Assembly (NCBI GenBank): GCA_021163225.1
Contig: JAGGXE010000001.1
Span: forward strand, 1-50,993
DNA length: 50,993 bases
Direction of reading: 5' to 3'
Source of the DNA: Candidatus Micrarchaeota archaeon
Lineage (GTDB): Archaea; Micrarchaeota; Micrarchaeia; Anstonellales; JAGGXE01
The translations under genes and the position numbers were made by a program. Below the pieces are notes generated by a model. It had not been told where the DNA came from. It searched no databases and worked only from the letters and a program-made list of their open reading frames with translations. The first letter of the stretch is position 1; every line of letters begins with the position of its first letter. This document shows, piece after piece, positions 13,358 to 44,749 of this stretch.

Positions 13358-13469
13358 GGGGGAGTAGGCTAACCTGGCAGGCTGCCAGCTTTGGGAGCTG
13401 GTGATCCGAGATCCGGCAACCTACGTGTCCACGGTTTGTCGGACGGGAATTCAAATCTCGGCTCCCCCA
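13358..13469 (+). tRNA. tRNA-Pro (anticodon UGG at 13392-13394) with a 39-nt intron (13411-13449) in the T-arm, position 53/54
   Basis: Hand fold:
- Acceptor: GGGGGAG/CTCCCCC plus discriminator A.
- D arm: GGCT-AACCTGGCA-GGCT.
- Anticodon arm: CCAGC-TTTGGGA-GCTGG.
- T arm: CCGAG-[39 nt]-TTCAAAT-CTCGG. Removing 13411-13449 gives a canonical 73-nt tRNA.
- Full BHB around the junctions; see findings. Confidence 0.85.
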
Positions 13470-42801: not shown

Positions 42802-42892
42802 CGGGCCCGGAGGGATTCGAACCCTCGACCGTCAGCTTAGAAGGCTTGCGGTCTAACAGATTGCCGCTCTATCCAAGCTGAGCTACGGGCCC
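42802..42892 (-). tRNA. tRNA-Arg (anticodon UCU, 42839-42841) with a 16-nt intron (42846-42861) in the anticodon stem, position 29/30
   Basis: Minus-strand fold:
- Acceptor: GGGCCCG/CGGGCCC plus discriminator G.
- D arm: GCTC-AGCTTGGATA-GAGC.
- T arm: GAGGG-TTCGAAT-CCCTC.
- Between them are 33 nt instead of 17.
- Excising ATCTGTTAGACCGCAA leaves GCAGC-CTTCTAA-GCTGA, which is 4 bp plus a G27-A43 mismatch.
- BHB-like motif described in findings. Confidence 0.75.
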
Positions 42893-42918
42893 GTCAGAAT
42901 CTAGCAAAAGAATTAATA

Positions 42919-42926
42919 CATTTTAT
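42919..42926 (-). promoter_or_regulatory. TATA-box-like element upstream of tRNA-Arg
   Basis: On the minus strand, ATAAAATG lies 27-34 nt upstream of the tRNA 5' end, in the 45-nt gap after argS. Confidence 0.4.
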
Positions 42927-42937
42927 CTTTAAAAATC

Positions 42938-44749
42938 TTACATGCGGTCCAAAGGTATCATGCCCAACAATGTTAATCCTTTACGAAGGACGGATTCCGT
43001 CAGTTTGACAATGAGTGTTCGGACATGTTTTGTTTGGGCAGAACTCCCTATAACGGGACAGTTCTCGTAGAACCGGTTAAATTCTTTCACAAGGTCGAGT
43101 AGGTAATCTATCAACACGTTCGGTCTTAGTTCTGAAGCGGTTTTCCAACAGTGATATCTGAAGAGTGCAAGATGTTTTAACAGACGTCTTTCGTATTCGT
43201 TGAACCTGTATTCATCTTCTATCTTGTAGGATTTCTCATCTCCCTGTTCGTTCAACCGTTTCAGTATGTTAACTGTTCGTACATAAGCGTACGTCAGGTA
43301 AGGTCCGCTGTCCCCTTCCATGTTCAATGCCCTGTTCCAATCGAACACAATTACCTTTTCCGGAGATACCCGTAAGAACGAATACCTTATTGCGTTCAAA
43401 CCCACTGCCTTGCTTATCCTCAGTCTCTCGTCTTCACTGTAGGTTTTTGAGACCTTTTCATAGGCACGTTTTACCGCCTCTTCGTAGAGGTCGTCTGCAG
43501 TATAACTCTGCCAACTTCCTTCTCTTCCTGAGAGTTTACCTTCTTTGAGACGGACGATTTCGTACGCCAAATGATGGAACTCTTCAGCGGCCTTTTTATG
43601 ACCCATGGTTTCCAACACGTATCTTACCACTTCTTGCGGATAAGTCTGCTCAGAACTTATCACGTTGATAACCTTGTCTGCGTGTCCGAACTCCTTTTCT
43701 ACTCCGTCAACCGATGATCTGAACAACATCTCACCGTTGGGTTGTACGAACATCTCTCTGAACTTCAAACCCTTCTTCAGCAGTCCGTACTTCCATAGGT
43801 GAAATATTACATCCTTCCCAGTGTATGTTACGGTACCGTCCGAACGTATGAGTATCTTATCGCCAACTGGTGTGGGTGCAACATAGCAACCTTTGTATTC
43901 TCCGGATTCCTCGTACCTAACAGTACCAGAATGTTTAAGTAATTCCATTCCTTCATCGAACAGTTCAGCGAGAATATCGCTCTCATAAACCAGATAATCG
44001 TGAAATATGTTGTATTTGAAGGCCGTCTCATATTGGGCAGTAACGCATCTGTCTACTACGTTACAGACATCCTTCCAGATTTCCTGGTCACGGCCCTCCA
44101 TCTTCCTCAGAACCTCTCTTATCTTCCTTTCGGTTTCTTTATCTTCTTCCATTTTCCTATGGATCTTCACATACTCCTTACCTAACCAATGGTCGAATTT
44201 CCCTTCAACACGATTGTTCAAGTAGAGATAGGAATAGATGCTCTCGGCAACCTGCAGACCTAAATCGTCTATGTAATCTACACGTTCAACAATGTATCCC
44301 AATCCCTCATACACATTAGCTATTACGTCTCCGAGTAACGCGTTTCTCAGATGTCCCACATGCCAGGGTTTGTTAGGGTTGACGGATGGATATTCGATCA
44401 AAACCTTTATGTTCCTGTTTTCTTCCCTTCTGATCTGCGCAACCCGTTCCCATTCATTAAGAATGGTCGTGAAATATTTATCTGTAAATACGATGTTTAC
44501 GTAAGGTCCGATCACTCTGATATCGAACCTGTCGTCACACAATTCGATAAGTTCTTCGGCGAGATCCTTGGCGGTTGAAAGAGGATTCGTGCTCCTGAAC
44601 TTGGCGATCTGAAACCCCAACGTCATACTTAGGTCTCCATACTTTTCGTTACCCGGTATCTCCAGATACCTGTAGACGTTACCGGGCAATCCGTTGTCCT
44701 GGATCTTGTCGTTTACAAACTCTTCGATTTCTTCACAACCGTAATACAT
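42938..44749 (-). CDS. argS: Arginyl-tRNA synthetase
   Basis: NPNKPWHVGHLRNALLGD (HIGH-type), a DALR-like C-terminal anticodon-binding domain, and a terminal ...PLDRM. 603 aa. Confidence 0.92.
   Translation of the reverse strand: MYYGCEEIEEFVNDKIQDNGLPGNVYRYLEIPGNEKYGDLSMTLGFQIAKFRSTNPLSTAKDLAEELIELCDDRFDIRVIGPYVNIVFTDKYFTTILNEWERVAQIRREENRNIKVLIEYPSVNPNKPWHVGHLRNALLGDVIANVYEGLGYIVERVDYIDDLGLQVAESIYSYLYLNNRVEGKFDHWLGKEYVKIHRKMEEDKETERKIREVLRKMEGRDQEIWKDVCNVVDRCVTAQYETAFKYNIFHDYLVYESDILAELFDEGMELLKHSGTVRYEESGEYKGCYVAPTPVGDKILIRSDGTVTYTGKDVIFHLWKYGLLKKGLKFREMFVQPNGEMLFRSSVDGVEKEFGHADKVINVISSEQTYPQEVVRYVLETMGHKKAAEEFHHLAYEIVRLKEGKLSGREGSWQSYTADDLYEEAVKRAYEKVSKTYSEDERLRISKAVGLNAIRYSFLRVSPEKVIVFDWNRALNMEGDSGPYLTYAYVRTVNILKRLNEQGDEKSYKIEDEYRFNEYERRLLKHLALFRYHCWKTASELRPNVLIDYLLDLVKEFNRFYENCPVIGSSAQTKHVRTLIVKLTESVLRKGLTLLGMIPLDRM

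Follow-up and report, generated by a model that had tools for sequence, protein, structure and literature searches.

A tRNA-Arg(UCU) gene of a Candidatus Micrarchaeota archaeon interrupted between positions 29 and 30, with a predicted relaxed bulge-helix-bulge fold

The 50,993-nt stretch of DNA analyzed here (the window) is one of the 63 contigs (C57) of the genome of a Candidatus Micrarchaeota archaeon (880 kb, 0.88 Mb; 44.6% G+C; 96.7% complete), whose order is represented by 176 genomes and whose family by this one alone. At positions 42802-42892 on the minus strand it carries what we consider, with high confidence, to be the single functional tRNA-Arg(UCU) gene of this genome, with a 16-nt, protein-spliced intron between tRNA positions 29 and 30, that is inside the 5' strand of the anticodon stem, which would be recognized and cut as a relaxed bulge-helix-bulge (BHB) motif. 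The same interruption was found in related genomes, where intron sequences have diverged and the predicted fold is kept.

Identity of the gene and position of its intron

The locus matches the Rfam tRNA family RF00005 with 47 bits, against a gathering threshold of 29 bits. Acceptor, D and T arms are all present, and by hand parsing 12 of 12 acceptor and T-stem pairs are formed. From 42892 to 42802 the minus strand reads GGGCCCG TA GCTC AGCTTGGATA GAGC G GCAATCTGTTAGACCGCAAGCCTTCTAAGCTGA CGGTC GAGGG TTCGAAT CCCTC CGGGCCC G, with a 7-bp acceptor stem, a 5-nt variable loop and the discriminator G at 42802; the complete pre-tRNA gene is 91 nt long and has no encoded CCA. The segment between G26 and the variable loop measures 33 nt instead of the 17 nt expected of an anticodon arm, a surplus that the first-pass annotation of the window had reported and that was obtained again on recounting. 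When ATCTGTTAGACCGCAA (42861-42846) was deleted in silico, the remaining 75 nt were called as a normal tRNA-Arg(tct) by ARAGORN. The spliced anticodon arm is GCAGC-CUUCUAA-GCUGA, with a 5-bp stem composed of four Watson-Crick pairs and a G27.A43 mismatch, the latter flanked by G26-C44 and C28-G42, and with a 7-nt loop containing U33, the anticodon U34-C35-U36 and a purine at position 37. Exon 1 (42862-42892) thus comprises tRNA positions 1-29, namely the acceptor 5' strand, the D arm with A20, G26 and G27 C28 A29, and exon 2 (42802-42845) comprises positions 30-73, namely G30 C31, the loop CUUCUAA, GCUGA, the variable loop CGGUC, the T arm and the acceptor 3' strand. The anticodon TCT (UCU; 42839-42841), which reads AGA and AGG, lies in exon 2.

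The body of the molecule points to arginine as well. A20 and C35 are the identity elements by which arginyl-tRNA synthetase recognizes tRNA-Arg; both are present in the locus, and charging with arginine is predicted from the sequence. A20 is found in five of five Arg tRNAs of the genome, while the very similar Lys tRNAs carry C20. A paralogous tRNA-Arg(CCU) (G000:C19:9927-10022) is identical to the locus in acceptor stem, D arm including A20, T arm and discriminator. It differs in its anticodon stem, GCUGC/GCAGU with G27.U43 instead of G27.A43, and in its intron, which has 21 nt and lies at the canonical position 37/38 instead of 29/30. All 37 Rfam tRNA matches of the genome were parsed by hand; besides the UCU locus, the Arg set consists of genes with CCG, UCG, GCG and CCU anticodons. 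A second intact tRNA-Arg(UCU), which according to the first-pass annotation would speak against the function of the locus, was searched for among the 37 Rfam matches, by ARAGORN with introns allowed, by BLAST with the locus and by a custom scan for intact or split UCU hairpins, and none was found in the assembled genome. AGA is the commonest Arg codon of the genome (28.8% of Arg codons, 17 per 1000), and tRNA-Arg(CCU) cannot read it. Because no other UCU gene is present in the 96.7%-complete genome and AGA is used this often, a UCU gene is required.

Comparison with orthologues shows both the identity of the gene and the borders of the intron. The window copy by itself allows the junction to be shifted by one A, as cuts at 28/29 and 29/30 give an identical product. 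The orthologous introns end AT|G or AG|G, which places the cut after A29 and not after C28 and rules out the 28/29 junction; the proposed intron at exactly 42846-42861 was thereby fixed. Two intron-less orthologues provide the spliced form directly. One (L011, in G038) reads ...A GCAGC CTTCTAA GCTGA CGGTC..., and the other (L012, in G032) is similar, with (C/A)GGTC; their sequence equals the predicted spliced product, GCAGC-CTTCTAA-GCTGA, including the G27.A43 mismatch. With a strict pattern search the 29/30 interruption was detected in at least eight genomes from six families of the order, while three further pattern matches (one in G079, two in G172) were discarded as not being tRNAs. In a collection of species-level genomes, at least 22 further records showed the same interruption, nearly all titled Candidatus Micrarchaeota or Micrarchaeia, among them the complete genome of Ca. 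Fermentimicrarchaeum limneticum Sv326 and a Ca. Burarchaeum. These counts are lower bounds, because the search patterns required exact exon sequences. The combined set comprises 23 copies from as many species-level genomes, with 22 distinct introns of 15-38 nt.

Several observations on these orthologues go beyond the 29/30 site. The T loop of six of the eight order-level orthologues is interrupted behind TTC/TTCA by a second, long intron (~45-170 nt), from locus position ~1560 (L044 in G005, L041 in G002, L037 in G064, L038 in G065, L039 in G071 and L042 in G019), and the window copy and that of G010 have none. One tRNA-Arg(UCU) of the order (L016, G029:C6:4834-4935) is free of the 29/30 intron and has a 27-nt intron at the canonical 37/38 position. 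Within a single order the gene is hence found uninterrupted, with a canonical intron, with the 29/30 intron, or with both the 29/30 and the T-loop intron. In G010 (L046/L062, contig C65) the last ~15 nt of tRNA-Arg(UCU) together with a ~45-nt trailer are directly repeated ~85 nt downstream, which might have arisen by tandem duplication or through an assembly error, or be an att-like remnant. Records titled Nitrososphaerota and Nezhaarchaeales (L048, CAZLVJ010000016.1, and L068, DAIQQE010000216.1) contain mutually identical tRNA-Arg genes with an intron of the Micrarchaeota type, and L048 has a second CCTTCTAAGC ~250 nt downstream. Together with two other off-label records, titled Woesearchaeota and Methanosarcinales (L058, L063), they are probably binning or labelling artefacts.

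The bulge-helix-bulge fold and competing readings of the locus

The archaeal BHB motif consists of a central helix (H) with a bulge (B) 3' of each of its strands and a cut after the second nucleotide of each bulge (PMC4090602); with an outer, exon-exon helix (h) and an inner helix (h') the strict form is written hBHBh', and relaxed forms are HBh' and hBH. This geometry is present in the locus. H is formed by GCGG (42867-42864), i.e. G24 C25 G26 G27 of exon 1, and by CCGC (42851-42848) of the intron, and thus yields a 4-bp central helix between the splice sites. The 5' bulge (B1, 42861-42863) is CAA, with the cut after C28 A29 and before the first intron nucleotide A, and is closed by H and h'; the 3' bulge (B2, 42845-42847) is AAG, with the cut after the two A and before G30. 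The inner helix with its loop is TCT-GTT-AGA (42852-42860), 3 bp and a triloop. These elements had all been named in the first-pass annotation, and their layout recurs in the 23 genomes and 22 introns. In every copy the four intron nucleotides of H sit two bases before the 3' junction. The 5' strand GCGG is invariant in 22 of 22 distinct copies, and the 3' strand is CCGC, CCGT, CTGT or TCGT, all of which give G-C or G.U pairs, or CCGG, by which two copies lose the outermost pair (G.G). Over the 22 distinct copies 97.7% of the H cells are paired, and apart from the two outermost G.G all changes are from G-C to G.U. B1 is CA|A or CA|T, and B2 is AA|G, AT|G or AG|G.

H varies only in its intronic strand, as expected with a 5' strand that is exonic. 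The inner helix h' adjoins B1 and H, has 2-9 bp in 21 of 23 copies and is built from sequences that are unrelated between lineages (TCT/AGA, GGGA/TCCC, GAGGGG/CCCCTC, GAGAAGAA/TTCTTCTC and others). Covariation was tested on a fixed-frame alignment whose columns were defined by constant distances from the junctions, independently of pairing, and compared with 500 shuffles. Standard pairs occupied 95.5% of the cells, compared to 80.1% after shuffling and 27-58% when the partners were slid by 1-3 columns. Double-sided changes were observed in 25 cells where 5.9 were expected, and the covariation score was 0.528 compared to 0.202. None of the 500 shuffles reached the observed number of paired cells, of double-sided cells or of further pair types, or the observed covariation score; 285 of 500 did reach the observed number of pairs in which both sides had changed. 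All three scored h' pairs covary, with 5-6 standard pair types each. In the RNAfold ensemble of the window precursor H has a probability of 0.70 and h' of ~0.5, and the D stem of ~0.004. As H forms at the expense of the D stem, whose last nucleotides G24 and C25 it uses, the substrate would not be a cloverleaf.

On its outer side the motif departs from the strict hBHBh' form, as an A23.C31 apposition lies beside AA|G and a mismatch (A.C or C.C) is found at this place in every copy. The first-pass annotation had stated that there is no outer exon-exon helix, and this part of its description did not hold. The minimum free energy (MFE) structure of the full precursor (RNAfold, -42.5 kcal/mol) contains one, in which U12-A20 pairs with U34-A43 and A21-G22 with C32-U33, with 12 pairs and a bulged U20a (candidate strands U12-A23 of the D arm at 42868-42881 and C31-A43 at 42832-42844). 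Pairing resumes at G22-C32, so that the helix starts one A23.C31 mismatch away from the AA|G bulge. The classification as relaxed was retained: the motif is HBh', or has an imperfect h. In our reading, the 3' site is better described as a 1x4 internal loop or an imperfectly closed bulge, with the outer helix physically available.

In a rival reading, the intron and junction are the same but the substrate recognized is not a one-sided HBh' motif; the precursor would refold into a rod, with nucleotides 12-23 paired to 31-43 as the outer helix and a near-complete hBHBh' in which A23.C31 flanks the 3' bulge. We regard this as a serious possibility, though slightly less probable than its opposite. 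The helix appears in the RNAfold MFE structure and ensemble and in eight of eight orthologues folded, and H formation already melts half of the D stem, which frees that strand. The 10-23/31-43 duplex reaches -14.7 kcal/mol and ranks first among 23 tRNAs of the genome (next -10.2, median ~-5.5), and the median over orthologues is -12.0 kcal/mol in intron-bearing and -8.0 kcal/mol in intron-less copies. Against these values it has to be considered that energies of -9 to -12 kcal/mol are likewise found without the intron, in orthologues that share the GCAGC/GCUGA stem, that the complementarity may merely follow from pairing of UCU with G18-G19-A20 and conserved D-loop bases, that the pair beside the bulge is always mismatched, and that RNAfold ignores tRNA tertiary structure. 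Moreover, the outer helix is beyond the reach of covariation, because its exon nucleotides are invariant among the 23 copies. In view of the overlapping energies and the invariant exon bases, no claim is made that the outer helix is under selection.

Two other readings concern the nature of the locus. In one, the gene would be a tRNA-Asn(GUU) with GCAAT-CTGTTAG-ACCGC as anticodon arm, and the TCT hairpin would represent either an intron at ~44/45 or a long insertion in the variable region. ARAGORN indeed calls the unspliced locus Asn(gtt), taking the loop of TCT-GTT-AGA as the anticodon loop, cmscan (Rfam) likewise aligns the anticodon arm with the GTT hairpin, and U33 and A37 are both found in the loop CTGTTAG. 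However, this arm has two A.C mismatches in its stem, no BHB was found around the TCT hairpin, and the body is that of tRNA-Arg(CCU). Among the orthologues the GTT hairpin varies in length (introns of 15-38 nt) and in loop sequence (CGT, ATTC and others) whereas the CTTCTAA arm is invariant, and the intron-less copies retain the TCT arm only. A proper Asn(GUU) with a canonical intron exists at C1:4043-4157 (+) of the same genome. The Asn reading is effectively refuted, with a negligible residual likelihood. The other reading, a decaying pseudogene with a chance insertion and AGA/AGG read by another tRNA, could invoke the G27.A43 mismatch in the spliced stem, the low Rfam score of 47 bits and the ~3% of the genome that is unassembled. 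The mismatch is common to the intron-less orthologues, though, and all other arms of the locus are perfect. The insertion site and the fold are kept, with covariation, in 23 genomes, and the search for another UCU tRNA was negative while tRNA-Arg(CCU) is unable to read the most used Arg codon. A pseudogene is accordingly very improbable, and we retain the locus as a functional, intron-containing tRNA-Arg(UCU) gene.

The Asn call is not a single case, as ARAGORN miscalled three interrupted tRNAs of this genome: Tyr(GUA) as Asn, Asn(GUU) as Thr and Arg(UCU) as Asn. The first of these, an 'Asn' at G000:C12:3612-3725 (-), was rejected as an extra Asn gene, since it has C1-G72, A73 and a canonical intron and is Tyr(GUA). 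Automatic annotation of such genomes would mis-assign anticodons, and auto-annotated Micrarchaeota may appear to be without a tRNA for AGA, their most frequent Arg codon, and to have a spurious extra Asn tRNA.

Splicing enzymes, proposed maturation and gene neighborhood

A relaxed motif had led the first-pass annotation to expect a splicing endonuclease of broad specificity, and the EndA content of the genome agrees with this. A Pfam search for EndA domains gave one open reading frame (C48:34407-35567, 386 aa), in which the N-terminal domain is matched once and the C-terminal domain twice, all in a single frame, and no second EndA gene in the genome. Residues 7-386 align to residues 7-387 of PDB 4FZ2 (E = 1.9e-117), and the protein is collinear with the EndA of ARMAN-2; 4FZ2 is the apo form of the ARMAN-2 ε2 endonuclease (PMC12397907). 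In the ARMAN-2 enzyme, Y236, H251 and K282 are catalytic, R275 and W384 contact the RNA, K224 and D357 form dimer contacts, and K161 in the ARMAN-specific loop (ASL) is required for cleavage and confers broad specificity (PMC3488258). All eight residues face identical ones in the EndA of the genome, whose ASL is GTYKAEKR instead of GTYKVSEH with K161 kept. On sequence grounds the enzyme is of the ε2 type, with the three units αN, α and βC. Homodimer formation and cleavage of relaxed motifs would be expected by analogy; ε2 EndA cuts strict hBHBh' and relaxed hBH substrates in vitro, and homodimerization and relaxed cleavage have been shown for the ARMAN-2 enzyme only (PMC3239211). An EndA match was obtained in 20 of 20 sampled genomes of the order and was full-length in most, with or without the intron; in G024 it covers residues 129-384 only, and in G003 it is split over two alignments. 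The RtcB ligase is encoded on C24 (592 bits; C24:10182-11483), and its gene lies ~150 nt downstream of an intron-containing tRNA-Ser(UGA) gene (C24:9933-10029).

With these components the following course of maturation is proposed, in which cleavage, ligation, refolding and use of the outer helix are deduced from sequence. Transcription would give a 91-nt precursor with the 16-nt intron between positions 29 and 30. The precursor would leave the cloverleaf when G24 C25 and G26 G27 pair with CCGC of the intron to form the 4-bp H. C28-A29|A would then lie in a 3-nt bulge that h' closes, with A-A|G30 across H from it. The 5' strand of the D arm, now released, could anneal to nucleotides 31-43 and give an outer helix with imperfect pairing. 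EndA, as a homodimer of the three-unit ε2 type, would cut after the second nucleotide of each bulge, and RtcB would join A29 to G30, linking ...GCGGCA to GCCUUCUAAGC and yielding a 75-nt tRNA for AGA and AGG.

Several points weigh against this scheme. The inner helix of the window copy is weak, with its 3 bp and triloop, and H competes with two D-stem pairs; over the eight folded orthologues the RNAfold probability of H ranges from 0.17 to 1.0, and in five of them it is only 0.17-0.48 because of a competing register. The published assays with ε2 enzymes used hBHBh' and hBH/BHL (bulge-helix-loop) substrates, and none of those described in the parts of the two reports considered here was imperfect on the outer side (PMC3239211, PMC3488258). 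Finally, the mature junction is itself deduced from the gene and its orthologues.

A wider interpretation is that the 29/30 intron is ancient and vertically kept in tRNA-Arg(UCU) of Micrarchaeota and that its recognition forces the precursor out of the cloverleaf into a rod, in which the D arm pairs with the anticodon arm and the D stem gives up two nucleotides to H. Splicing would then be an obligatory refolding or quality-control step, possibly a regulatory one, for the tRNA of the commonest Arg codon, with the frequent linkage to argS as part of the control. We consider this speculative and rather unlikely as a whole.

The linkage to argS was seen at the locus itself. The argS gene (42938-44749, minus strand; arginyl-tRNA synthetase, 603 aa; Pfam PF00750, PF05746, PF03485) lies directly upstream of tRNA-Arg(UCU) on the same strand and ends 45 nt before it. 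A synthetase gene that adjoins its cognate tRNA gene is unusual. The two genes are also neighbors in five other Micrarchaeota species (loci L041/L054, L042/L053, L050, L065 and L027), one of them intron-less, and are convergent in G019. The adjacency may indicate co-transcription. The 45-nt spacer between the argS stop codon and the tRNA (42893-42937) is A+T-rich and contains a TATA-like TTTTTAAAGATAAAA (42921-42935, minus strand), a putative promoter element read from the sequence; a sigma-70 scan of the spacer uses a bacterial model that is not applicable to an archaeal host. A T-run follows the discriminator of the tRNA.

Interrupted genes are common among the other tRNAs of this genome, as ~16 of the 37 matches carry insertions. 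Pro(UGG), which also lies in the window (13358-13469), has an intron at 53/54 that by hand folding forms a complete hBHBh', with H = TCCG/CGGG, h = TGA/TCA and h' = TCCG/CGGA, so that the relaxed motif of Arg(UCU) does not represent a general pattern of the genome. Leu(GAG) (G000:C19:14640-14745) has a non-canonical intron in the D loop, and a tRNA-Ile at G000:C4:18510-18634 has an anticodon UAU that is encoded in the genome, together with a canonical intron of ~50 nt; no CAU-type Ile2 tRNA was recognized among the 37 Rfam matches. In the whole assembled genome, neither Rfam nor ARAGORN detected tRNAs for His, Gln, elongator Met, Pro(GGG/CGG), Leu(UAA/UAG) or Ser(GGA), which may be multiply interrupted, split or located in the unassembled part.

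Relation to known archaeal tRNA introns

The closest known system is ARMAN-2 (Candidatus Micrarchaeum acidiphilum; Fujishima 2011, PMC3239211; Hirata 2012, PMC3488258; PMC12397907), which belongs to the same phylum-level group and has the same type of enzyme. In ARMAN-2, 56% of the tRNA genes are disrupted (PMC3239211), compared to ~16 of 37 Rfam matches here, and both genomes contain introns at non-canonical positions with relaxed motifs. The main text of the ARMAN-2 papers gives as examples introns at 59/60 of Cys(GCA) (hBH), at both 53/54 and 59/60 of Pro(GGG) and at 37/38 of Ile(UAU); it makes no reference to a tRNA-Arg(UCU) interrupted at 29/30, the supplementary tRNA table aside. The two systems further differ in the side on which the motif is imperfect, which is the outer, exon-exon side in the Arg(UCU) locus and the inner loop side in the ARMAN-2 substrate tested in vitro.

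The insertion point itself is listed among the recurrent non-canonical intron and split sites of archaea (Yoshihisa 2014, PMC4090602). Crenarchaeota use it for example in the split tRNA-Ala of Caldivirga maquilingensis, and there as in the Arg(UCU) locus BHB, HBh' or hBH logic is combined with an EndA of broad specificity. The lineages (DPANN/Micrarchaeota as opposed to Crenarchaeota), the enzymes (ε2 as opposed to an α2β2 heterotetramer) and the tRNA species differ. Unlike in recent transposition of the Thermoproteales type, the 29/30 site of tRNA-Arg(UCU) is kept across many species.

It is established that relaxed HBh' and hBH motifs depend on enzymes of the α2β2 or ε2 type (PMC3239211, PMC3488258). 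Earlier work has likewise described non-canonical introns, the 29/30 site and the ε2 enzyme, and the locus adds a well-supported example. Its conservation across Micrarchaeota in tRNA-Arg(UCU), the use of D-stem nucleotides in H and the linkage to argS were not found described in the literature considered, again with the supplementary tRNA table of ARMAN-2 aside. Taken together, the 22 introns on an invariant exon frame from 23 genomes constitute a natural substrate series for the requirements of ε2 endonucleases on the outer side of the motif.

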